A stretch of 64,000 bases of DNA from an uncultured Gammaproteobacteria bacterium (GTDB lineage: Bacteria > Patescibacteriota > Patescibacteriia > Magasanikbacterales > JBBTQS01). The DNA is taken from assembly GCA_965230935.1 (NCBI GenBank), contig OZ246400.1, forward strand, positions 4,090 to 68,089, written 5' to 3'. The position numbers and the translations under genes are program-made. Shown in pieces: positions 2,753 to 50,082 of the stretch (position 1 is its first letter; each line of letters starts with the position of its first letter). A model generated the notes under the pieces. The model was not told where the DNA came from and did not search any database. It saw only the letters and a program-made list of their open reading frames with translations.

Positions 2753-3127
2753 CAGTATGATTTTGTATGATCTTTCATCAGCAAAAATGGCTACTCATTA
2801 AGTGGCTATTTTTGTTTTCAAATAAAAAACAGCACCCCAGCGTTGCGCCAGAGTGCGTGAAGGAAAAGGGTTAGACGGGCTCGAACGCGACGCAAGCTCC
2901 TACACAAGTATCGCGAACGGCCCACCACGACGGAGGTTCCAATGGAATTACATCATGGTGAACTTCGCCCGCCTTACCCAGCTCCGCAGTGTTCACCGCG
3001 GAACTTGTATCTGAAGTGCCCAAGGGCAAGGGAGTAGTGATCCCCCGCCCCCAGGCCGGTTGTGGTGTTCACCGCGTGATGCGAGGACCCTGGCAGGTCA
3101 CTCAAATCACGCAAGAAGGAGTACGAA

Positions 3128-3400
3128 ATGCACTCGTCCCCCTGCCCGCGTTGCGGATTCTTCCACCCCCGAGACCCAAGGAGTTCACCAAGGGTCAATT
3201 GTTTTGATCAATTGCGCGGGCGGCGAAGGGGATCCGACCCCCCTTCAACCACCCACGACTTCGGCTGCAGACAGATCCTGAGACCACGCCGTCAGACCGG
3301 CATGACCTCGCAATCGAGACAAGGAAACACGCTAATGAGAACTTGCCCCTTCTGCTGTAACTGTCTTCGTCCGCGTGTAAACAAGTATACAAAATACTGA
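3128..3400 (+). CDS. small Cys-rich basic ORF inside the GC-rich island (possible zinc ribbon: CPRC...CPFCC)
   Basis: AAGGAG Shine-Dalgarno 7 nt upstream of ATG 3128, and the stop overlaps a perfect hairpin. The Arg-rich composition could instead be a wrong-frame artefact of GC-rich DNA. Confidence 0.25.
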   Translation: MHSSPCPRCGFFHPRDPRSSPRVNCFDQLRGRRRGSDPPSTTHDFGCRQILRPRRQTGMTSQSRQGNTLMRTCPFCCNCLRPRVNKYTKY

Positions 3401-3425
3401 ACACCTGTCAAGTACAGGTGTTCAG
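3397..3425 (+). terminator. perfect 11-bp-stem hairpin (CTGAACACCTG-tcaagta-CAGGTGTTCAG)
   Basis: Perfect inverted repeat read directly from the sequence. No strong U-tract follows, so it could equally be an operator or RNA hairpin. Confidence 0.4.
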
Positions 3426-3574
3426 TCAAGATCGACGATAGATATTCCAGAGAATCCGAATGTATTGGCTCACTTGACTCATCTCCCACTCATTCAGTTC
3501 GGAAAACGGGAAGTTCGGCCCACCAATGCAAAAAGGCGCCTAATTTAGCAGCCTTTTTCATTCTTCTAAAGCAT

Positions 3575-3607
3575 TGACATTGTTCACTTTTTGTGGTGAA
3601 ATAGAAT
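3575..3607 (+). promoter_or_regulatory. sigma70-like promoter (TTGACATTGT ... TGAAAT/TAGAAT) inside an AT-rich pocket of the GC island
   Basis: TTGACA at 3575-3580, TGAAAT at 17-nt spacing, followed by TAGAAT. It shares the 11-mer ATTGACATTGT and TAGAAT with the tRNA-Thr promoter at 5809-5837. Confidence 0.45.
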
Positions 3608-3685
3608 TTGCCCTCTTGATTCGAGTAGGGTCTGCCAAACAATCCATTTGTTTTGAAGACCTTCTTCGTATCGTCCGGAGAGGCG

Positions 3686-3828
3686 CGCTCGGCGTGAAAA
3701 TACAGACCACAACAACGGTGTTGTAACATGTCGCTCGGTGACATGGTTTGTCAGAATTTCCCCAGACGAATAGTGCTCGGCACTAGGGGTGCTACGTGCA
3801 TAGCAATGTGCTGTTTCACTCGGTGAGA
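3686..3828 (+). repeat. four direct repeats of (C)GCTCGG(C/T)(G/A) at ~42-46-nt periodicity in the leader upstream of the 3861 ORF
   Basis: GCTCGG at 3687, 3733 and 3775, and ACTCGG at 3818. Four copies of a 6-mer in ~140 nt at a regular period are unlikely by chance. Confidence 0.4.
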
Positions 3829-3860
3829 CAAGTGGTGATTCTTTAGAAGACGGAGGAACC

Positions 3861-4724
3861 GTGGACGATCAAGTCTATAAACGGTATCTCGAGCTCGCGA
3901 AACTTCTTAGGAGATGCGGGCTCTTCAGTGTTTACCTGGCTATCATGATGGCAGCCAGGTCGCGCAAGCAGTTCGACACCATGATGGCGGAGCTGCCTGA
4001 CCACGCACGACTGATGCGCGAGGATCAGGTGGTGCTCTGGAAGGCTCTCAGCGCTGTCTGGGGGAAGGGTATTCCGACGGCAGATCACCTGAACTTGGCG
4101 GGGCGTGAGCTCCTGTTCAAGCCGGTGTTCGACGATCCGAAGGCCACTCTCGTCTGGTACTACAAGTTCGTGTTGTGTAAGGACCGTGAGCCTGCGAGCC
4201 TTTCCGCCTATGGGATTGGCCGACAGGACGAGCGACGCCTCATTCATGGTATCGAGGAGCGTTCGGGACGTGGGGCGCAGCACTTCTCGGTTCAGTGTGC
4301 TGGTCAGCTCTTCAGCGTCGGCTGCAACCTATTCGATGATGTCATGCTGGTGGAGTTCGAGCTTTCTGTCAAGAACCTCACCGAGCAGATGACACAGGCC
4401 ATCCGCAGCTGTAAGTCGCTGATGCGTCTGAACACGCGTCGTGGCTCAAGCGTTGATGACAAGGTGACCTTCGTCGTCGAGCTCAGCAACGTGGATGACC
4501 TGGCCGCCGTGGTCACCCAAGTCGAAACGGGGTGTGGACCTCTCGACCTGCTCGATCCTGACGACTTCACATTCGAGCGCCTGCTCACGGCGCGTCTTCG
4601 TGATCTGGAGCTGCCGCTCGAGTCGTCGGTCGGTCGAGTCGTCGACCACAACCCTGCGCTGAAGCATCACTTCCCCAAACATCCTGAGGGGCAGTGGAGC
4701 ATCCAGTTCCCGGCCATGGACTAA
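3861..4724 (+). CDS. hypothetical protein (GC-rich island cargo)
   Basis: GTG start with GGAGGA Shine-Dalgarno at 3852-3857, a 287-codon open frame, and a terminator hairpin after the stop. No family recognised. Confidence 0.6.
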   Translation: MDDQVYKRYLELAKLLRRCGLFSVYLAIMMAARSRKQFDTMMAELPDHARLMREDQVVLWKALSAVWGKGIPTADHLNLAGRELLFKPVFDDPKATLVWYYKFVLCKDREPASLSAYGIGRQDERRLIHGIEERSGRGAQHFSVQCAGQLFSVGCNLFDDVMLVEFELSVKNLTEQMTQAIRSCKSLMRLNTRRGSSVDDKVTFVVELSNVDDLAAVVTQVETGCGPLDLLDPDDFTFERLLTARLRDLELPLESSVGRVVDHNPALKHHFPKHPEGQWSIQFPAMD

Positions 4725-4764
4725 CCTCCATCGTGGTCTAAACTCACAAAACAAACACAACCAG

Positions 4765-4800
4765 AACGCAACCCTACGGGTTGTCGTTTTGTTTAGTTTT
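4765..4800 (+). terminator. rho-independent terminator
   Basis: Stem (ACG)CAACCC / GGGTTG(CGT) followed by a T-rich tract tcgttttgtttagtttt. Confidence 0.5.
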
Positions 4801-4957
4801 GATTTGTTACTGATTCATCCGGCTTGTAAATCTTCCCAAAATCAAAACACACCATCGTTGGTGTGTCTTGTTGGTTTGCCTAAACTTCCGTCATCTCCTG
4901 CGACGGCAATGCCTAGGGCTTGCTCGGATGACCGAGTGCGCCGCCACGCGCTCCCGA

Positions 4958-5570
4958 TCAGTCCTTGATGCGGACCACGCCGTCCGTGCCGACCTCCAGG
5001 GTCTGCTCGACGATGGCCGCCGCCACCGAGGCGTTGAGGCTGGTCCACAGCGTGTTGGTCGCGACGGCCTTCGCCAGCTCCCGGTCGCGCGCGAGGTCCG
5101 TCAGCTCGCAGCGCGCCGAGGTGAAGCCGTCCTGAGCCGCCGCGAGCCGAGCCAGGTTGGCCGGATCGCAGAACGGGTCCGCCAGGTCGTCCACCAGGAC
5201 CACGATGGCGTCGTCCACGTGCTCCTCGATCTCGGTCGCGTTGCCCTTGGTGCACTTGCCGACCACCGGCGTGGCGTCCTCGACGTTGCTCGGACCACCG
5301 GCGGGGTTGCTGTGGTTGCCGCCGACCAGCTCGACCTCGGTGAACTCCACACACAGGATGAACGAGTTGGGGTGCTGCGCCGTGAGCTCGGAGATGAGCT
5401 CGTCGGTGCAGTCGCCCTCCTCCTCGTACGTCAGCGTGCTGCTCCCGTCCTTGGCTTGGACCTCGATCTCGGCGACGGTCGTGGTCTGCGCGAGGGCGGT
5501 GGCGGGGACGGCGAAGGTGGCGGCGATGGCGGCGATGCAAAGAACGAACTCGATACCATAGTGACGCATG
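4958..5570 (-). CDS. hypothetical secreted protein (GC-rich island cargo)
   Basis: Internal ATG at 5570 gives MRHYGIEFVLCIAAIAATFAVPATALAQ, a clear signal peptide, with GGAG just upstream. It lies in the longest frame, 4958-5710. Several acidic, Cys-containing segments follow. Confidence 0.55.
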
Positions 5571-5808
5571 GATCTTCTCCCTTTCGATGATGCGCGTTCG
5601 ATGTGGGGTGTGAAGGATTCCTTCCCTCCTACTGCATCTCGCTTCCCACTTGGCGAGATGAGGTCCCTAACTCCCTCCTCGGAAGATTGAAACAGTAGAC
5701 TATAGCACATTTGGACGGTTTTGTCAAGGGTGTCAAAGTAACAATTTAGCTAAAATAAGGTTAATTTGATAAAATAGGCCAATTTCCCCCCGGATAAATT
5801 AGGCTAAA

Positions 5809-5837
5809 TTGACATTGTGGTAATTTGAAGGTAGAAT
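5809..5837 (+). promoter_or_regulatory. sigma70 promoter for tRNA-Thr (TTGACA-17-TAGAAT) with upstream A/T-rich repeated motifs
   Basis: Consensus -35 TTGACA, a 17-nt spacer and TAGAAT. Repeated AAAATA(A)GG..AATTT motifs at 5745-5806 resemble a UP element. Two hairpins in the leader precede the tRNA. Confidence 0.6.
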
Positions 5838-5938
5838 ATAGGGGCAAAAGTTGTCTTGCCGCCAACCTTAGCAACTTCGTCGCTAAGGTTGCTCGTTCGG
5901 AAAAGCATGAACGCAAGCGTTCAGCTTTTCACTCACTC

Positions 5939-6012
5939 GCCACCTTAGCTCATCTGGCTAGAGCGACGGTTTTGTAAACCGTAGGTACCGGGTTCGAGTC
6001 CCGGAGGTGGCT
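5939..6012 (+). tRNA. tRNA-Thr (anticodon TGT)
   Basis: Acceptor GCCACCT/AGGTGGC, anticodon stem ACGGT/ACCGT with loop TTTGTAA (UGU), T-arm CCGGGTTCGAGTCCCGG. Confidence 0.9.
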
Positions 6013-6101
6013 CACTTTCGAGGATGTACAGGCCGTGTTTATGGTGGTACATCTCACGGAATCCATTGCGGTCTACACTGAGGTTGATAACGAATCAACC
6101 T

Positions 6102-7844
6102 ATGGAAATCGACAGACTCCTGATGGAGTTCGCCGGGGACCGCGTGGCCTTGCGCGGCTACTCGCCCCACACAATGCGGCGCCAAGTGCAGGCGGCGCGA
6201 CAGTTCTTCACGGTCACCGGCATCGGCGCCCTATCAGAGGTGAGCTACGACGTGGACGCCCGCCAGAGCCAACAGCTACGCGATGAAACTGACTTGACCG
6301 CTGAGCAGGTTCAGCCGAGCAGTTCGCCGAACTGGTGGCAGTTTCTCACGCTCCCGAAGGGGCGCGTACGTCAGTACTGGACGCGTGCAGCCCGCGAGGT
6401 GGTTAGGGAGGTTGAGGCTTCAGAGTCCCCACTGGTCTTCATCACCTTCCATGCGAAATATCAAAGCGATGTGTACCGATGGCGGTTCTCACCATGTAAT
6501 CCGGTGCTGCTGCAAACGATAGGCATCAGAGCCTTCTTTACCCTCATCGATGATGTCTACCAGATGCACAAGCGGCGTCCCGGAGACATTCAGAGCGAAC
6601 GTCAGATGTGCTTCAAGTACGAAGATCCGGCGGAGCGCGCGCTCGCCCTGGTGAGAGAGACTAAGGCTTCCCTCGTCGAGCTGATCAGGTGGCGGCAAGA
6701 GGAGATTGCGACGACGGAGATGCTTGCGGCTGTGTCCGGTTGTTCTGCGCAGCTCGTGTCGATCCGACATCCGCTGGCCACGATGCACAAGCTGTTGGAA
6801 TCACCCGAGTCGGCATTTTACTTCTCACATCCGATTACTGGAGTTCGCGCCGACCCGAACTTTCCGGACGTGGTTGGTCTGAAGGAGATCGAGGATATCT
6901 CAAGCGAGCTCCGCGGTCGCTTCACACTGATTGAACCAACTACTATTGACGAGTACAGGATTGAGCAGCTGGGGCAGGGCACCCCCGCACCGCGTCTGAT
7001 TCCTCGACTGTCATGCCGATGGCCGTTCCCGGCTGGTGAGGACGAGATGCTTGGCGGCTCCGACGGCTTTCCCACGTTCGGTAAGCAAGAACTGCTCTGT
7101 CCGCGCGAGAACGTCGTCGCGCTAGAGTTGGAGGAATTCTTCGCGGATTTGCTGGCCGGAACCGCCCCGGAGGAGCCCACACATCTGGTTTCGGAGTCGA
7201 TCGGTGGCTTGGTTGATCTGCTAAAAGAAGACATCACCTGGCGGGATCACACGCTTGTAGACCAATGCGGACGCCTCGTGGTGTTCCGCCCGGCGTACCG
7301 CGGGATTCCGTCGACCGGAGTTCGCAGAGAGATTGAGTACTATCGGAAGCTAGCTCTTAGCGGTCCACAAGACAAACACTTCTGCGTATTGCTTCACCCG
7401 CCGGACGACGATGACGCCTTGGCCCAGTACATAGCGTTGAAACTTGTTTCTTCGTGGGCCGAGGACTCGGGCGTGGGCCCGCACATTCGACCACGTCTTG
7501 ATGTCGGGGCCGAAAATCAACTCATTCGAGACCTGACGGTCGCGCTCGGCAGCGACGCCGATGAGGAGACCACGGCCCGAGCATGTGCGGATGCGCTTTC
7601 CCCACGGATTGAACCGGAAGTCAGCGGACCGTCCCCAATGACGAGTGGTCGTCGTGTCGGAGCGCGAACAAGGAACAAAGAGGTCTTGCAGGCGGCCGCA
7701 GCCCGCGCGCTGTCGACGATACAAGATCACCGCTACTTTCGCTCTGGCGGCCTGATGCCAGGACGCGCGGCCGCCACTGACGATGCACGGCCACCACAAC
7801 CCTGCTGTTTTCTGAGTAATACGCCGTTTGGTGCAGTCGTTTAA
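6102..7844 (+). CDS. large hypothetical protein; the N-terminus resembles the core-binding (SAM-like) domain of tyrosine recombinases
   Basis: LMEFAGDRVALRGYSPHTMRRQVQAARQFF follows the XerC/XerD N-domain pattern (..RGLS.NT..AYRRDL..F). No canonical R-K-H-R-H-Y catalytic domain was recognised. Only weak RH...Y resemblance at RHPLATMHKLLESPESAFYFSH. The frame is open from 6024. Confidence 0.5.
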   Translation: MEIDRLLMEFAGDRVALRGYSPHTMRRQVQAARQFFTVTGIGALSEVSYDVDARQSQQLRDETDLTAEQVQPSSSPNWWQFLTLPKGRVRQYWTRAAREVVREVEASESPLVFITFHAKYQSDVYRWRFSPCNPVLLQTIGIRAFFTLIDDVYQMHKRRPGDIQSERQMCFKYEDPAERALALVRETKASLVELIRWRQEEIATTEMLAAVSGCSAQLVSIRHPLATMHKLLESPESAFYFSHPITGVRADPNFPDVVGLKEIEDISSELRGRFTLIEPTTIDEYRIEQLGQGTPAPRLIPRLSCRWPFPAGEDEMLGGSDGFPTFGKQELLCPRENVVALELEEFFADLLAGTAPEEPTHLVSESIGGLVDLLKEDITWRDHTLVDQCGRLVVFRPAYRGIPSTGVRREIEYYRKLALSGPQDKHFCVLLHPPDDDDALAQYIALKLVSSWAEDSGVGPHIRPRLDVGAENQLIRDLTVALGSDADEETTARACADALSPRIEPEVSGPSPMTSGRRVGARTRNKEVLQAAAARALSTIQDHRYFRSGGLMPGRAAATDDARPPQPCCFLSNTPFGAVV

Positions 7845-8046
7845 TTGCGCTTCGCAACGGTAGTCGGCCGACTCCTCACTGAGAAGAGGCGTTCGCATTT
7901 GCGAACACTGGACCGAACTGGCACCTGCAGCCGCCCGGGCTAGACAGATCCGCATGAGAAATGTTACTGTTGATCCGTCCCGCATGGCCCCGACCGGTTG
8001 AGAGTTGTTGCGGCGCTAAATTTAGCTAATCCAATAGAACAACCCC

Positions 8047-8090
8047 TTTGTAAACCGTAGGTACTGGGTTCGAGTCCCAGAGGTGGCTCA
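8047..8090 (+). repeat. attR-like direct repeat: displaced copy of the tRNA-Thr 3' half
   Basis: 42 of 44 bp are identical to 5969-6012, and the two mismatches are compensatory within the T-stem. Confidence 0.75.
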
Positions 8091-8139
8091 AGGAAGGATA
8101 AAAAAGCCATGGGGACGTAGTGAGCGAAAGCGAACGTCT

Positions 8140-8330: not shown

Positions 8331-8377
8331 TACGGTTGAGACAAGAGAGAAAGCGTGCTACAATGCCATAATATTTT

Positions 8378-8827
8378 ATGGCATTTCGCATATGTACAAC
8401 GTGTTTCGTCAAAAAGCCTGTAGAACATTTTAGTGTACGAGATATTCGGATCGGTCGGCGACATCGAGTATGTAAGATGTGTCACAAAACGTATCGTCGT
8501 AAGCATTACCTGCGTAATAAAGAGAAGTACATTAAAAAGGCGCGCAGGTGGAATGGGAAACAACGTAAGAGTATAGAAGATTTTTTATTCCGATATTTAT
8601 CAAAACACCCTTGTATTGATTGTGGGGAGGGTGACGTGGTGGTACTTGATTTTGATCATCGCTATGATAAGCGCATGGCGATCACGCAGATGATGAAGAA
8701 TTGCTACGCACTTGAAACGATCAAGAAAGAGATAAAGAAATGTGAAGTTCGTTGTGCTAATTGCCATAGAAGGCGAACTGCTATAGAATGTGGGTACTGG
8801 AAAATTAAACGTCAATTGGGCCCATAG
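8378..8827 (+). CDS. HNH endonuclease (free-standing, homing-endonuclease-like)
   Basis: N-terminal Cys-rich zinc-binding region (CTTCF...CKMCH), then an HNH core CIDCGE...LDFDHRYDK...CANCHRRRT. Confidence 0.8.
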   Translation: MAFRICTTCFVKKPVEHFSVRDIRIGRRHRVCKMCHKTYRRKHYLRNKEKYIKKARRWNGKQRKSIEDFLFRYLSKHPCIDCGEGDVVVLDFDHRYDKRMAITQMMKNCYALETIKKEIKKCEVRCANCHRRRTAIECGYWKIKRQLGP

Positions 8828-8897
8828 TTTCAATTGGCAAAACGCAAGTCTCCAAAACTTGAGTTCTTCGTTCAAATCGAAGTGGGCCTGCCAATCT

Positions 8898-12000: not shown

Positions 12001-12473
12001 AAAAGGAATATGCAACGTTTGGTGCGGGTTGTTTTTGGGGAGTAGAGGAGATGTTTCGTGTTTTGCCGGGAGTGCTCAATACCACAGTTGGATTTATGGG
12101 CGGGAATGTTGATGATCCATCGTATGAACAGGTTTGTACAACTGAGACTGGTCATGCTGAGGTAGTGCATATTGAATTTGATCCAAAGATTATCTCTTAC
12201 ACAGAACTTCTCGATGTATTTTGGGAGGCTCACGATCCAACACAATTGAACCGACAAGGTGCTGATATTGGTACACAGTATCGTTCTGTTATCTTTTACT
12301 ATTCAGCAGAACAGCAAAAACAAGCGACACAATCAAAAAAAGTACTGGAGTCATCAGCACAATTTTTTCGTCTCATTGTTACCCAAATTGTTCCTGCTGC
12401 TGATTTTTTTAAAGCAGAAGAACACCATCAACAGTATCTTGCTAAGCGTGGGAAGGGGAGTTGTGTAACCTAG
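11997..12473 (+). CDS. msrA: peptide methionine sulfoxide reductase MsrA
   Basis: GAGCFWGVEE active-site motif followed by VGFMGG; 158 aa. ATGA overlap with the upstream gene. Confidence 0.9.
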   Translation: MKKEYATFGAGCFWGVEEMFRVLPGVLNTTVGFMGGNVDDPSYEQVCTTETGHAEVVHIEFDPKIISYTELLDVFWEAHDPTQLNRQGADIGTQYRSVIFYYSAEQQKQATQSKKVLESSAQFFRLIVTQIVPAADFFKAEEHHQQYLAKRGKGSCVT

Positions 12474-13678
12474 TGAAGACTTTTAAGTGGTACATCAGCC
12501 CACTGGGCAACCACTTTTTTGATCTCATCTGAGCCCACTTTAGGGCGACCAGGAGATTTGGTAAGGTCTTTTTCAATCTCTTCAATGCGTTTCACTGTTG
12601 CTACCATGGTTTTGCGGATTTTGTTGAGTTCCTCTTTCGTATTGCGTTCTTTTTCTTGTGATTTGAGGTTAGATAACTTTTCTTTAAGTGCCATCAACTC
12701 TTTAGGACAGTCATCAAATTCACACCGTGCTTGGTATGACGCGTCGTGCAATAGCGCAACTGCTGACTCTGGTGCGCTACTTTCGCGGACTTTAACCGCA
12801 GCGCTGGCCTCGTCAATCAAGTCAATCGCCTTATCTGGGAGTTTACGATTGGTAATGTACTCAGCAGATAATCGCACGGCATCACGTACTGCTTCATCTT
12901 CAATCTCAACATCATGATAATCTTCGTAATTAACTTTTACTCCCATGAGGATTGTGATTGCTTCTTCAACACTTGGTTCGTCAACCGTAATCACTTGAAA
13001 TCGTCGCTCCAATGTCTCGTCTGGTTTAATGTACTCTTCGTATTCTTTAAGACTAGTCGCGCCAATCAATTGCAGCTCACCGCGCGCAAGTGCCGGTTTG
13101 AGAATATCAGTGAAGTTTACTGCGCCCTCTGTTCCTTTGGTTTGAATCAGCATGTGAATCTCATCAATAAACAGGATAATCGTGCGATTCGCCGCTTTGA
13201 TCTGTCCGATCAATTGTTGGATACGCTTTTCAAACTCACCACGATATTTTGTACCGGCAAGTAGCTCAGTAACTTGTAAGGCAAGCACTTGTTTATTTTT
13301 AAGATTCGCCGGGATGTCTCCGGTAGCGATCTTAAATGCTAGCCCTTCAACAATAGCAGTTTTCCCAACACCAGCTGGACCAACCAATAGGGGGTTGTTT
13401 TTGGTACGACGAGACAAGATATGAATTGCGCGCCTGATTTCGTCTTCGCGTCCAATTACCGGATCAACTTCACCTTCGTTGGCATCTCGCGTGACATTGA
13501 TACAAAACGGAAGATCACCTGGCTTGGTGCTCATCCCATTTCCCAGCTTGGGGAGCTTGGGCAGTGCAAAGTCTCCTTGACGCATATAGCGATACACAAA
13601 GAAGAATAACAACGCCGCAAGAATAAAGTAGAATACTGGCGTGATGCTGGTGCCAAATTCTGGGATGGGGATTTCCAC
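12470..13678 (-). CDS. membrane-anchored ClpA/ClpB-type AAA+ ATPase with a single (D1) nucleotide-binding domain
   Basis: N-terminal TM helix (VFYFILAALLFFFVYRY) replaces the Clp N-domain. DPVIGREDEIRRAIHILSRRTKNNPLLVGPAGVGKTAIVEGLA is a canonical ClpB D1 signature with Walker A. It ends at IKKVVAQWADVPLKSL, exactly where a D2 domain would start, so there is no D2. Confidence 0.75.
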   Translation of the reverse strand: MEIPIPEFGTSITPVFYFILAALLFFFVYRYMRQGDFALPKLPKLGNGMSTKPGDLPFCINVTRDANEGEVDPVIGREDEIRRAIHILSRRTKNNPLLVGPAGVGKTAIVEGLAFKIATGDIPANLKNKQVLALQVTELLAGTKYRGEFEKRIQQLIGQIKAANRTIILFIDEIHMLIQTKGTEGAVNFTDILKPALARGELQLIGATSLKEYEEYIKPDETLERRFQVITVDEPSVEEAITILMGVKVNYEDYHDVEIEDEAVRDAVRLSAEYITNRKLPDKAIDLIDEASAAVKVRESSAPESAVALLHDASYQARCEFDDCPKELMALKEKLSNLKSQEKERNTKEELNKIRKTMVATVKRIEEIEKDLTKSPGRPKVGSDEIKKVVAQWADVPLKSLH

Positions 13679-13695: not shown

Positions 13696-14871
13696 TTAAA
13701 AGGAAAGACACTTGACTTGCGGGCTCACTTTAAATGGGAATTCTTTTACTGATCCTGGATATGACCAATTGTTGTCTGGATGGGCATTCACACAAAGTAC
13801 ATCATTCGCTTTTGGTGATAATGCGTACGTGTCTAGGGTTACAAAGAGATCCTCGGTCATTCCGGAATCGATTTCCACTGGATCAAAGGTGAAGGTGATT
13901 GTGCTACTGACCACGTTATATACGTCAGCGAGTGGAACCTCTTTTGCTTGGAGAAGATTTGATGAGAAAATATTGTCCTCATACAATTTTGCTTCAATGG
14001 TGGCTGGTAAGTCTGGTGATGCTGGATCGGTTTTCCACATGGCGGAGTTTACGTTAATTGTAAAACTGTCAAAGGAAATTGGTTTTGCATCTGCAGTCGG
14101 TGGCAATGTTGCATCAAAAATAGCAACTACGTGATCATCTCCATAAGAGCTTGCACCTGACGGCGATGAGTTGTTGTAATTAATGACCGGGTTTGGGAGT
14201 ACTATTTCCGGTTCCTTTTCTGTAATAAACGTTGGATATGAAAATGATTTCCCGATCACTTTTGTGACATTCGCTTCCACATCTTTGCTGTGCACCATGA
14301 ATGCGATTGGTGATCCTTCAAGTGCGGGATTTACATATTCTTTGGGCATGACATCAGCAGTGATGGTGAATTGCGTTAAGGTGCTGGTCGCCAAGAACAT
14401 ATCAAGCTCTTGGAACGTAACTTTTACCCCTTCACTGGTGGCAATTCCCGAGGCAATGGCTGGGATCGTTTTTGGTTTAAAGTCACTATCATAGAAACCG
14501 AAGTCAGACCACAGTTGGAAATTCGTAAATAGTGATGCCGCATCAGCAATCAGTGCTTTGTTGCGTGGGCGAATAATAAGACTTAGCTCATCAACACCAA
14601 CCGGGCCACTTGCTTTCGCAGTCATTTGAAAATCGATCAGCTCTACGGTTTTTTGAGCAAAATGGTATTCCTTTTGTGGTTCTTGTGGTGAAGAATCAAC
14701 CACTTTGATCCAGCTGCGCCCCGGCAGAGTTGCAAACCCGGCAGCAATTGCACCAAAGGCGAGTAACAGCCCTACTGTTACTGTTACTTTTTGTCCAACA
14801 GATGCTTTGGTTGCCACTTGGGTTGCACTTGTAGTTTTTGCACGAGCACGTGAAGTTTTTTTAGTTGGCAT
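13696..14871 (-). CDS. hypothetical type-II membrane-anchored protein with a large extracytoplasmic beta-rich domain
   Basis: Basic N-terminus MPTKKTSRARAK, TM helix VTVGLLLAFGAIAAGFATL, and about 340 extracytoplasmic residues. Upstream and co-directional with the ClpB-D1-like ATPase. Confidence 0.65.
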   Translation of the reverse strand: MPTKKTSRARAKTTSATQVATKASVGQKVTVTVGLLLAFGAIAAGFATLPGRSWIKVVDSSPQEPQKEYHFAQKTVELIDFQMTAKASGPVGVDELSLIIRPRNKALIADAASLFTNFQLWSDFGFYDSDFKPKTIPAIASGIATSEGVKVTFQELDMFLATSTLTQFTITADVMPKEYVNPALEGSPIAFMVHSKDVEANVTKVIGKSFSYPTFITEKEPEIVLPNPVINYNNSSPSGASSYGDDHVVAIFDATLPPTADAKPISFDSFTINVNSAMWKTDPASPDLPATIEAKLYEDNIFSSNLLQAKEVPLADVYNVVSSTITFTFDPVEIDSGMTEDLFVTLDTYALSPKANDVLCVNAHPDNNWSYPGSVKEFPFKVSPQVKCLSF

Positions 14872-14884
14872 ACGACAAAATAAG

Positions 14885-15733
14885 ATGAATAGATTCAGCG
14901 ATAGTATAGCATATTATGGAGATAGTTTGCATGTCACTCTTGGTGCTTACACCAAGGCATGCTATAGTACGCTAACGTCTTTCTTCATGATTATGCGTAA
15001 CCAAGCTAATCATCACGAGCATATGCTGTATGAGCATGCTCGCCAGTGGCTCATGCTTATTGTTCGGTATTGTTTTGCAGATGCAACTGTGGTGTTTACC
15101 GGATCGCATGAAAAAGGTACCGCCATCTCGCCACTTACTGATATTGATTGTTTAGTGGTGTTTGTTGATCAAACCTATCGATCTGATGATCCAGCAGAAT
15201 TTATGAGGTGGTTCATGAACGCGTTGTCTCAACGCGCGCCACATACTTCTATGGTCCTTCGTGCACATGCGATTACTGTCCAGTATTGCGCGCAAATGTA
15301 TATTGATCTTACTCCGGCTATACAAACGAGGTATGGTGGGTACATGATTCCGGAAGTATTTCCGTATACTGTCGCGCGGTGGGTGTACTCAAATCCAGAT
15401 CACCATATTATGCGTTTGCGAAATGAGAATCAGCGGCATCGTGGGATACTCCTTGATATTATTCGACAGGTCAAACAGTGGCGAAATCAACATTGTCCCT
15501 ATATCAAATCGTTTCATTTGGAAAGTTTGATTATCGAAAGTTTGCGCCATAAAGATGTTCTTTCCGTAGTACAGGGATGTCAATTATTTTTTGCTCGTGC
15601 TCTGCGATTGTCACAAATGCCATGCCTGCGTGATAGTGCAAATCCAATGCGATTAGTTGATGACTACCTTACCCTTGAACAGCGAGAGGATTTTCTTCAT
15701 CAATTGACTCAAGCGCAGACTTGCATTGCATGA
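14885..15733 (+). CDS. Pol-beta-superfamily nucleotidyltransferase, cGAS/DncV-like (CD-NTase/SMODS-type) motif arrangement
   Basis: [23 protein letters not shown] matches the hG[GS]x9-13DhDh motif. The third-Asp strand MYIDLTPAI matches hDhhPA. A C-terminal helix [10 protein letters not shown]...[11 protein letters not shown] resembles the conserved K-S-x-h-h-E-h-L helix of CD-NTases/OAS/Mab21. The frame is open from 14705; the ATG at 14885 was chosen. Confidence 0.65.
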
Positions 15734-15768
15734 GATATGTAGTACAATCTATCTACTTACTATTACTT

Positions 15769-16440
15769 ATGCGCATTTCATTATCGTTATTTTTACTCGC
15801 AATGGTATTGGTCGGGGCAGGGTGCGTCGGCACACAAGAGCCAGCACCGTCTCGAGCAGTACCACTTGATTATAATTCATCAAAAACGCAAGATACGTCT
15901 ATGAATACTCCGGCACAACCAGACATTACACCAGATGCTGACACTGATGTGGCAGTCGAAGCAGCCACTGCTATTATCAAAACCTCGCTTGGTGACATTA
16001 CCGTAGAATTTTTTGCTCAAGATTCACCAAAAACCGTTGCAAACTTTGTGAAGCTTGCCAGCGATGGATTTTATGATGGTATAAAGTTCCACCGCATTAT
16101 CTCAGATTTTATGGTTCAGGCTGGTGATCCACTGACAAAAGACGATAGTAAACAACCATTGTGGGGGACTGGTGGCCCAGGATATGAGTTTGCTGATGAG
16201 TTTAACTCTCATCCGCTGGTGCGCGGATCATTGGCAATGGCCAACTCAGGGCCAAACACCAATGGAAGCCAGTTTTTTATCGTGACTGCTGAGGCGACCC
16301 CATGGCTTGATGGCAATCACACGAATTTTGGTCGGGTGGTTGACGGGATGGATGTGTTGGATAAGTTGAATGTGGTAGCAACCGAAGGTCCTGATCGTCC
16401 GGTTGAGCCAGTGGTGATTGAAGGAGTAAAAGTACAATAA
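15769..16440 (+). CDS. cyclophilin-type peptidyl-prolyl cis-trans isomerase, probable lipoprotein
   Basis: Signal peptide with Cys ([12 protein letters not shown]). Cyclophilin core [15 protein letters not shown]...[19 protein letters not shown]. Start could be ATG 15730. Confidence 0.85.
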
Positions 16441-25762: not shown

Positions 25763-25800
25763 ACCCACCTTATGGCTATGCTATACTAATTTCCAATACT

Positions 25801-36717: not shown

Positions 36718-36805
36718 GGTATTCTTCTTCTTGACCGGGAGTTAGATGCCTGCTATTTTATGGTCAACGTGTCATCACTGGGGTGACACAAGGAGGATTG
36801 AGCAC

Positions 36806-37177
36806 GTGGACGGCACATGTAAGCTTCTACTCGTCGTGAGCAGAGGAAGGAAAGATGGCCCTGCAGCCACTAAAGGAGCACAGGTCAGTGATGATCTGGA
36901 GGGCAAGATCATTGTGCGCATGGTGAGGTGGCCAACCATACCTACGCGTGGTGATCTGTGCGTGTTTGGTCGTACTGAGGATGGAAAGGTGATTTCGAAG
37001 TACCTGGAACGCTCAGCACGATCCATTCAGCACGACTTTGATCACGACGTGGTTCGGGTTTGCTATCGCGGTCTTGAGCCCGCACTGTTCGACGTACTAG
37101 CGAACCAAGACGGTTGGCAGACGTTGGAGAAGTGGGAGGCTGGGCTTGCTTCGTCTCAAGACACCGCAGAGGGCTGA
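36806..37177 (+). CDS. hypothetical protein (GC-rich micro-insert cargo)
   Basis: AAGGAGG Shine-Dalgarno at 36791-36797, then GTG 36806. 123 codons. A short hairpin GTGTCA..TGACAC lies just upstream. No family recognised. A longer ATG-initiated frame runs from 36746. Confidence 0.45.
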   Translation: MDGTCKLLLVVSRGRKDGPAATKGAQVSDDLEGKIIVRMVRWPTIPTRGDLCVFGRTEDGKVISKYLERSARSIQHDFDHDVVRVCYRGLEPALFDVLANQDGWQTLEKWEAGLASSQDTAEG

Positions 37178-50013: not shown

Positions 50014-50082
50014 ATATGGCGTAGTGTAGCAAATATCGCCCTATGGTACAATAGATTAGGCAATATTTTTTCAGCTAAATCT

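Follow-up and report, generated by a model that had tools for sequence, protein, structure and literature searches.

Introduction

The closest known counterparts of the gene considered here are the cGAS/DncV-like nucleotidyltransferases (CD-NTases) of the cyclic-oligonucleotide-based antiphage signalling systems (CBASS), which are encoded in several types of operon. The gene lies in a 64,000-nucleotide (nt) stretch of contig OZ246400.1 (positions 4,090 to 68,089 of the forward strand; assembly GCA_965230935.1) of an uncultured bacterium placed by GTDB in the Magasanikbacterales of the Patescibacteriota; this whole stretch is referred to below as the window, and the CD-NTase (SMODS) open reading frame (ORF) at 14885..15733 is the single CBASS-type gene in it. 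Its product is already labelled SMODS by automated annotation, and a reading made from the sequence alone (the sequence-only reading) had described it as an orphan CD-NTase without an adjacent effector. We put forward here, with about even confidence, that the gene is a stranded remnant of a former CBASS operon with a single-transmembrane effector, that it has no dedicated receiver for its product, and that its catalytic core is possibly still active.

The closest sequences to the window protein, with 33–36% identity and tblastn E-values down to 2e-39, belong to type I CBASS loci that combine a single-transmembrane (1TM) effector with a CD-NTase fused to an AGS-C domain (loci L069–L084, and that of protein P0004, which has the Pfam domains SMODS and AGS_C). 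These cyclases are 424–426 amino acids (aa) long, end in the AGS-C domain, have a ~168-aa 1TM effector encoded directly upstream and are located beside restriction-modification genes. The window gene shares with them the PADLOC model PDLC00823, the catalytic motifs and an IPEVFxxxxxW insertion, but it is ~145 residues shorter and has no AGS-C domain, effector or restriction-modification neighbours. In type II-short CBASS, where the only accessory gene is an E2 and the effector is a 1TM protein or NucC (P0003/L006, L087–L104, L010 and L011), the cyclase core is 26–33% identical to the window protein, and the operon consists of effector, cyclase and E2, whereas the window gene is without the C-terminal tail and the E2. 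Members of this type occur in genomes of the candidate phyla radiation (CPR), so that the clade circulates in the same kind of organism.

Among solved structures, the best structural matches are the type III enzymes CdnD of Pseudomonas aeruginosa (PDB 6P82/6P8J) and CdnC of Escherichia coli (E = 2.5e-12, TM-score 0.72–0.76, 263–270 aligned columns, 20–21% identity). Type III systems are controlled by HORMA and TRIP13 proteins and have NucC as output; the window has no HORMA gene, and its AAA+ protein is ClpB-D1-like instead of TRIP13. The best sequence match among solved structures is the CdnD of a type IV CBASS (9NTN, Cap10-CdnD; E = 4.9e-9), and the only non-self match of a word-indexed search, P0002, is linked to QueC and TGT; the window has no QueC, TGT or OGG gene. 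P0005 and P0006 belong to the same wider clade as the window gene (best tblastn segment 31–34% identical, E = 2e-33 and 1e-30), have no adjacent effector or E2 and lie among housekeeping or envelope genes. They differ from the window gene in having the full C-terminal helix and in their synteny across two species, whereas the window gene is a singleton without a known ortholog.

A divergent CD-NTase with an intact catalytic core

The ORF was confirmed as 282 codons plus a stop, in agreement with the annotated 282-aa protein. The three stretches that had been quoted as CD-NTase signatures were each found verbatim: the G(S)...DhD motif at residues 71–93 (nt 15095–15163), MYIDLTPAI at residues 138–146 (nt 15296–15322) and the 11-residue C-terminal helix motif at residues 207–217 (nt 15503–15535). 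Pfam SMODS (PF18144) scored 40.1 bits against a gathering cut-off of 26.5, a profile of the near clade scored 181.8 bits, and the best PADLOC oligonucleotide-cyclase model, for the window protein and for its closest relatives alike, was PDLC00823 (E = 1.3e-39 for the window protein); 33 PADLOC cyclase models matched at E <=10, the 25 listed spanning 1.3e-39 to 2.6e-07. It fell short of the cut-offs of the NCBIfam equivalogs, being either too divergent or too truncated for automatic naming by these models (NF041117, 120.4 bits versus 200; NF041116, 36.2 versus 200; the CBASS_cyclase_b model stands at 120 bits with a 200-bit equivalog cut-off).

Column statistics were calculated on 143 relatives (144 sequences with the window protein). 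The columns of G73, S74, D86, D88 and D141 were 78–99% conserved, and these include all three aspartates for which conservation among homologs had been the point at issue (Table 1). Every position conserved at 90% or more in the alignment was kept in the window protein (G73, S74, T79, D86, D88, P144, I155, W166, P171, K197 and E213), as were D141 and the family-specific C-terminal motifs (K197, W199, SFHLE at 209–213 and D250). An AlphaFold2 model built from the 144-sequence alignment had a mean predicted local distance difference test score (pLDDT) of 89.7 and a predicted TM-score of 0.84, and showed the two-lobed cGAS-like fold, with a nucleotidyltransferase (NTase) core and a helical C-terminal lobe that is without the family's last helix and its tail. 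In a Foldseek search of the PDB, ranks 1–37 were exclusively bacterial CD-NTases, in the order P. aeruginosa CdnD, CdnC, Enterobacter cloacae CdnD, CdnE, CdnB, CdnG-E2 and Cap10-CdnD, with MiD51 and cGAS ranking after them. Profile searches and structure prediction, both of which the sequence-only reading had recommended, thus assign the protein to the CD-NTase/SMODS family as that reading had claimed, and the assignment is secure on profile, catalytic-residue and fold evidence.

The sequence-only reading had left room for another NTase family of the polymerase-beta (Pol-beta) superfamily, such as an aminoglycoside or lincosamide NTase, an AbiEii toxin or the head domain of a CCA/poly(A) polymerase. 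The generic NTP_transf_2 profile does match at 23.4 bits, slightly over its 21-bit cut-off, and there is a weak archaeal CCA match of 19 bits; however, the cut-off of the latter is 281 bits, an MTPAP-like match reached 14.4 bits against a cut-off of 27, and SMODS and the 33 PADLOC cyclase models score far higher than the models of other NTases. Nothing was reported for the AbiEii and ANT families at E <=10 in the Pfam scan, no ANT, LinA, AbiEii, CCA or poly(A) family is among the 50 fold matches listed, the first 37 of which are all CD-NTases, and the C-terminal residues named above are specific to CD-NTases. An AbiEii-like or aminoglycoside NTase-like identity, for which there was no match or only generic sub-threshold ones, was accordingly not borne out; we give another family essentially no credence and regard this explanation as effectively refuted.

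Within its own family the window protein is, from sequence comparisons, a deep singleton, because a HMMER scan of 1.84 billion representative proteins returned 547 relatives at E <=1e-3, of which the best non-self match had an E-value of only 1.4e-28 and none of the best exceeded 34% identity, and because the word-indexed protein search returned the protein itself and one 29% match (P0002). Scanning of metagenomes yielded closer relatives, with up to 36% identity and E-values down to 2e-39, and the 33 informative nearest relatives are 26–36% identical to the window cyclase; the genome collection was scanned with a 6-sequence alignment. In a neighbor-joining tree with 100 bootstraps the window protein was on a long branch with 39% support for its nearest grouping, at which level no sub-clade is claimed for it. 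Copies of the gene itself were found in the assemblies of two other samples, identical at 100% over 20.8 kb and 1.8 kb, and also on a 931-kb contig. A phage-borne clade was considered and rejected, since the viral collection held a single distant match with 25% identity. A search of the literature on orphan or effector-less CD-NTases found nothing useful.

The ends of the protein

Past the position of the window stop codon, the relatives extend by a median of 26 residues, and by at least 15 residues in 84% of the 143. Their additional C-terminus consists of ...AIxEWxxIF and a tail, or of a longer stretch, of about 160 aa, with an AGS-C domain; the closest relatives continue for ~145 residues that include such a domain, and 43 of the 143 terminate in glycine. 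Neither the family's C-terminal helix nor the tail or sensor module after it is present in the window protein, and no trace of the missing part or of an AGS-C domain was detected in any frame of the 64-kb window. The AGS-C domain, seen under the Pfam name AGS_C on P0004, is said to have been described as a sensor by Burroughs et al. in 2015. In systems of the Cap2 type the cyclase is primed by a ubiquitin-like conjugation at its C-terminus (PMC10097602; bioRxiv 10.1101/2022.03.31.486616). Type IV cyclases are modified at the N-terminus instead, where deazaguanylation by Cap9 and Cap10 primes them (bioRxiv 10.1101/2025.04.06.647259).

At the other end, the ORF and its motifs are real, but the start given for it at 14885 is doubtful, and the first 34 residues are probably not translated. 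We infer that the protein begins at Met35, at the ATG at 14987, and has 248 aa, because homology and model confidence begin late, residues 1–34 are without similarity to the family and a promoter-like box lies between the two ATGs. The GS motif is preceded by a median of 49 residues in the relatives versus 72 in the annotated protein; the earliest HMMER match begins at residue 34 and most begin between 48 and 71; the near-clade hidden Markov model aligns residues 67–279, with an envelope from 32; and mean pLDDT is 42–64 in the first four 10-residue blocks and at least 90 from residue 41 onward. No significant similarity of residues 1–34 to the first helix of the relatives was found by position-specific score or with an N-terminal sub-profile. 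One MAFFT alignment had placed residues 1–20 over that helix, and this was dropped, as there was no signal relative to all window 19-mers or to 3000 shuffles.

Two extended -10 boxes stand back to back between the cyclase gene and the divergent 391-aa gene (Table 1). The pattern TGCTAYANT has 9 matches in the window versus 3.8 expected, and four of them lie 9–13 nt 5' of the ATG starts of other genes; its sites include 2617–2625, 8356–8364, 14903–14911, 14960–14968, 25779–25787 and 50023–50031. Since this recurrent box is often 9–13 nt from an ATG and Shine-Dalgarno sequences are rare or largely absent in this genome, the pattern suggests that mRNAs may be leaderless or have very short leaders.

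Partners of related cyclases and their absence from the window

Thirty-six nearest loci from metagenomes were inspected: 18 have a 1TM effector, 12 a 1TM effector and an E2, one NucC, one an E2 only and one a four-transmembrane (4TM) effector (L102), and three are too short upstream. Such a survey of homologous neighborhoods had been suggested by the sequence-only reading, and its result was uniform, in that a CBASS effector (1TM, NucC or 4TM) and/or an E2 adjoins the cyclase in 33 of the 33 informative loci. The loci of near relatives are mostly inside islands rich in restriction-modification genes. In L102 the 4TM effector (1.6e-67) is oriented divergently from the cyclase; it is fused to an N-terminal region of ~220 aa (L102:144-1634, minus strand; cyclase at L102:1624-2643, plus strand), which is an unusual layout for CBASS.

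Named relatives add to this picture. In the locus of P0003 (L006) the cyclase is accompanied by NucC (1e-85) and an E2 (3.6e-57), beside an integrase; the locus of P0004 has, beside LexA and methyltransferases, the cyclase::AGS-C fusion and a 171-aa protein, which serves as the 1TM_L056 reference and matches 1TM effectors that PADLOC confirmed in its closest relatives; that of P0007 has a NucC-like DUF6602 protein and the cyclase; and that of P0002, with Ogg, QueC, TGT, the cyclase and a 2TM protein, is a type IV CBASS. In Candidatus Doudnabacteria (L010) a 1TM effector adjoins the cyclase and an E2 is present, and in Saccharibacteria (L011) a 1TM effector adjoins the cyclase on a contig that ends before a possible E2. 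A group of Bacteroidota loci of more distant relatives (L012-L019, L032, L039, L042 and similar) was seen to consist of four-gene operons encoding a cyclase of ~324 aa and proteins of ~145, ~259 and ~267 aa, the last of which also matches the CD-NTase profile, giving two cyclase-like genes per operon.

The only effector-less relatives besides the window gene are P0005 and P0006, from two metagenome-assembled genomes of uncultured Gammaproteobacteria (L008 and L009). Their cyclases (L008:6938-7798 and L009:6845-7699) are 39% identical to each other and occupy the same place between two UDP-glucose/GDP-mannose dehydrogenase genes in a polysaccharide-biosynthesis cluster, the other proteins of which are 43–77% identical. 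Judging from this arrangement, the two orphans may represent a conserved non-CBASS use of a cyclase.

In the window, genes called from ~4,900 to the end are housekeeping genes by the precomputed Pfam annotation, including ABC transporters, MsrA, transaldolase, PGI, thiol-disulfide proteins, MscS, HrcA-GrpE-DnaK-DnaJ, RecJ, LepA, MurJ, UvrABC and MraZ. No defense-type Pfam or PADLOC domain was found in the called genes of that range (~4,900–64,000), a six-frame translation of the window gave no significant match to the effectors, E2 or TGT proteins of the relatives, and none of the accessory genes that define CBASS types (Cap2 E1/E2 or E2, Cap3, HORMA with TRIP13, QueC with TGT) is in the window. 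The statement that there is no adjacent effector therefore holds and extends to the absence of any effector-like domain or relic across 64 kb: the cyclase is a true orphan over at least 15 kb on its upstream side and 48 kb on its downstream side, outside any defense island.

A proposed stranded cyclase core

These observations are most simply accommodated by the following sequence of events. The ancestor would have been a small CBASS operon in which an effector adjoined the cyclase; in most of the related operons this effector is a ~170-aa single-transmembrane protein encoded directly 5' of the cyclase, and in the others it is NucC or a 4TM protein. The cyclase would have had an AGS-C sensor domain at its C-terminus or else a gene for a Cap2-like E2 downstream of it; operons of this kind circulate among CPR and groundwater organisms. 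In the lineage of the window, the regulatory module at the C-terminus would have been lost along with the effector and the E2, and probably the first N-terminal helix as well. What is left would be the catalytic core, a lone gene that has a promoter-like box to itself amid unrelated housekeeping and envelope genes. The Pol-beta core would bind nucleoside triphosphates and Mg2+ through Gly73-Ser74, Asp86, Asp88 and Asp141 and join the nucleotides into a cyclic oligonucleotide, and this product, if still made, would have no dedicated receiver nearby. Some relatives pair with NucC, which reportedly was found by Lau et al. in 2020 to be activated by cyclic tri-AMP (cA3), and cA3 would for that reason, by analogy, be a first guess for the product. 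With the effector and the C-terminal or regulatory parts lost, the canonical trigger and the canonical output of CBASS would both be gone, and the gene would have no canonical abortive-infection function.

The sequence-only reading had offered three options, of which another NTase family and a partner set with a peptidyl-prolyl isomerase (PPIase) or membrane AAA+ protein (see below) did not hold; of the third, a stand-alone signalling NTase, the orphan status stood, and a stranded remnant is judged likelier than an enzyme purpose-built to stand alone because the informative close relatives have adjacent partners, the C-terminus is truncated and the N-terminus is probably mis-annotated. A cyclase without an effector is commonly taken for a degraded CBASS, a view that agrees for the most part with the present data.

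Several observations weigh against a remnant. The ORF is intact, all highly conserved residues are kept and the fold is confident, whereas long neutral decay predicts otherwise; conservation of the residues could, however, simply be inherited from an ancestor that was functional shortly before stranding. The GC content (0.43), the GC at third codon positions (0.378) and the codon score (0.096) equal the window mean, and with such host-like composition the gene is not a recent foreign arrival. It has a plausible promoter-like box, and it is located in a compact, streamlined genome of ~0.93 Mb, where dead genes are normally deleted. The syntenic orphans P0005 and P0006, despite being only 39% identical, show that effector-less copies can persist. 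In addition, the portion of the genome inspected is 64 kb of the ~0.93 Mb.

It is possible, although we consider it unlikely, that the enzyme is a working signal synthase whose cyclic oligonucleotide is detected by a receptor or effector from another part of the genome, outside the window, that is, a split system that is functional in defense or in signalling. The intact core and confident fold, the host-like codon usage and promoter-like box, the retention of the gene in a minimal genome and the synteny of the orphan relatives across two species would all be expected of such a system. Set against this are the immediate adjacency of a partner in all 33 informative close relatives, the loss of the C-terminal module, which in relatives serves in sensing or priming, and the lack of anything receptor-like within ~15 kb upstream or 48 kb downstream.

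Rather improbable, in our estimation, is the broader notion that selection keeps the CD-NTases of this clade as stand-alone enzymes after loss of the effector, exapted for roles beyond abortive infection encoded by an operon. They might serve in cyclic-oligonucleotide signalling of a housekeeping or envelope-linked kind or, in an episymbiotic CPR cell, send a signal to receptors of the host bacterium. This notion is compatible with an intact, host-adapted and promoter-bearing copy in a ~0.93 Mb genome, with the missing sensor or priming module, whose loss could render synthesis constitutive, and with the syntenic orphans in the polysaccharide clusters of two Gammaproteobacteria. The window gene is a very divergent, truncated and effector-less member of the known CD-NTase family.

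Neighboring genes as possible partners

The GC content of the window is 44% and its genes are tightly packed, with gaps of 13–35 nt between annotated genes. The immediate neighbors of the cyclase gene (Table 1) are as the sequence-only reading had described them: downstream, a cyclophilin with a lipoprotein-type signal peptide, and divergently upstream, a 391-aa protein with one N-terminal transmembrane (TM) segment and a TM-anchored ClpB-D1-like AAA+ ATPase. An HlyD/MacB-type exporter follows 3' of the cyclophilin gene. Searches of Pfam, PADLOC and PHROG gave no match for the 391-aa protein, which has no homolog besides itself, and an AlphaFold model from the single sequence (pLDDT 38) is unusable for its fold. 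The AAA+ gene has hundreds of orthologs of ~395 aa with 45–68% identity in Magasanikbacteria and other Patescibacteria, the best named relatives being from Candidatus Magasanikbacteria; the organism is accordingly taken as a Patescibacteria (CPR) member with a small genome. In five related contigs its neighborhood consists of Wzy_C, the AAA+ gene, an 80-aa gene, a methyltransferase, a 137-aa gene, UPF0102 and, further on, NusA, with no cyclase; this conserved synteny is broken in the window, which we count as a sign of a rearranged context. This single-domain, membrane-anchored ClpB-D1-like AAA+ protein (~395 aa) is widely conserved, and we class its gene among the housekeeping genes.

The sequence-only reading had raised a non-canonical partner set with the PPIase or the membrane AAA+ protein, which would mean that the cyclase was repurposed with its present neighbors (the 391-aa protein, the cyclophilin lipoprotein and the AAA+ protein), for example in envelope-related signalling. 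The cyclase and 391-aa genes are both lineage-specific and share a back-to-back promoter region, a divergent effector exists in L102, the orphans of L008 and L009 are also in envelope (polysaccharide) loci, and the AAA+ protein has a weak TRIP13 match (3.9e-6). However, homologs of the AAA+, 391-aa, cyclophilin and MsrA proteins are present in 0 of 133 related loci, and the orthologs of the AAA+ gene have the other conserved neighborhood just described. The TRIP13 match extends over only 81 of 302 profile positions, in the generic P-loop part, and there is no HORMA gene. From the signal peptide of the cyclophilin and the positive-inside topology of the 391-aa protein, the former and the bulk of the latter are predicted to be extracytoplasmic, and therefore neither would be able to bind a cytosolic nucleotide; the 391-aa protein, as noted, also matches no known effector model. 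Repurposing in any form is in our view improbable, repurposing with these particular neighbors is more improbable still, and a PPIase or AAA+ partner, which was not borne out by the related loci, deserves very little even of that. A type III CBASS on the basis of the same TRIP13 match was likewise rejected, given its restriction to the P-loop part, the missing HORMA gene and the orthologs without a cyclase.

Table 1. Coordinates of the cyclase gene, its motifs and the adjacent features in the window
Feature	Position (nt)	Strand	Remarks
Annotated CD-NTase (SMODS) ORF	14885..15733	+	282 aa and stop
Likelier coding sequence, 248 aa from Met35	14987..15733	+	Homology, pLDDT, promoter-like box; inferred start
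Gly73-Ser74, NTase G[S] motif	15101..15106	+	Conserved in 99% of 143 relatives
Asp86-Ile-Asp88, metal-binding DxD	15140..15148	+	Aspartates conserved in 94% and 99% of relatives
Asp141, third catalytic acidic residue (hDhhPA)	15305..15307	+	78% of relatives; P144 after it 98%
Stop codon, inside the penultimate helix of the family	15731..15733	+	Relatives run a median of 26 residues longer
Promoter-like element for the cyclase: TTGGTG, 17-nt spacer, TATAGT with TG extension	14940..14968	+	
Extended -10 box TGCTATAGT	14960-14968	+	3' of the annotated ATG, 18 nt 5' of the ATG at 14987
-10-like box TGCTATACT of the divergent 391-aa gene	14903..14911	-	Back to back with the cyclase box
391-aa protein: basic N-terminus, one TM segment, beta-rich rest	13696..14871	-	Context; no recognisable effector
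TM-anchored ClpB-D1-like AAA+ ATPase	12470..13678	-	Conserved Patescibacteria/Magasanikbacteria gene; not a CBASS partner
TACAAT box of the cyclophilin gene	15743-15748	+	The gene's own box
Cyclophilin lipoprotein	15769..16440	+	Pro_isomerase 1.5e-50, lipoprotein signal peptide; not a CBASS partner

Two further regions of the window were of unusual composition. A stretch of ~5.3 kb (window ~2800–8100) has 50–71% GC versus 44% for the genome; it starts after tRNA-Tyr (2671–2753), holds tRNA-Thr (5939–6013) and ends ~700 nt before tRNA-Trp (8818–8893). Codon usage is atypical in its ORFs at 3861..4724, 4928..5590 and 6123..7844, for which Pfam, PHROG and Rfam gave no match, and the stretch is identical in the assembly of another sample over the overlap (window 4885 onward). 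It could be a foreign island or something stranger. Separately, a 143-aa ORF at 36746–37177 (plus strand) stands out by its GC content of 54% and its atypical codon usage; it is flanked by a Band_7 gene and hrcA and matches nothing in Pfam or PHROG.

Implications

If the gene is a remnant, it would be a clean example of how CBASS decays in reduced genomes, with an early loss of the toxic effector and of the regulatory modules and a longer persistence of the harmless cyclase core, and SMODS matches alone should then not be counted as defense systems in CPR genomes. If it is still used, it would be among very few bacterial cGAS-like enzymes that work outside an effector-linked operon, and it would point to cyclic-oligonucleotide signalling in ultra-small symbiotic bacteria.

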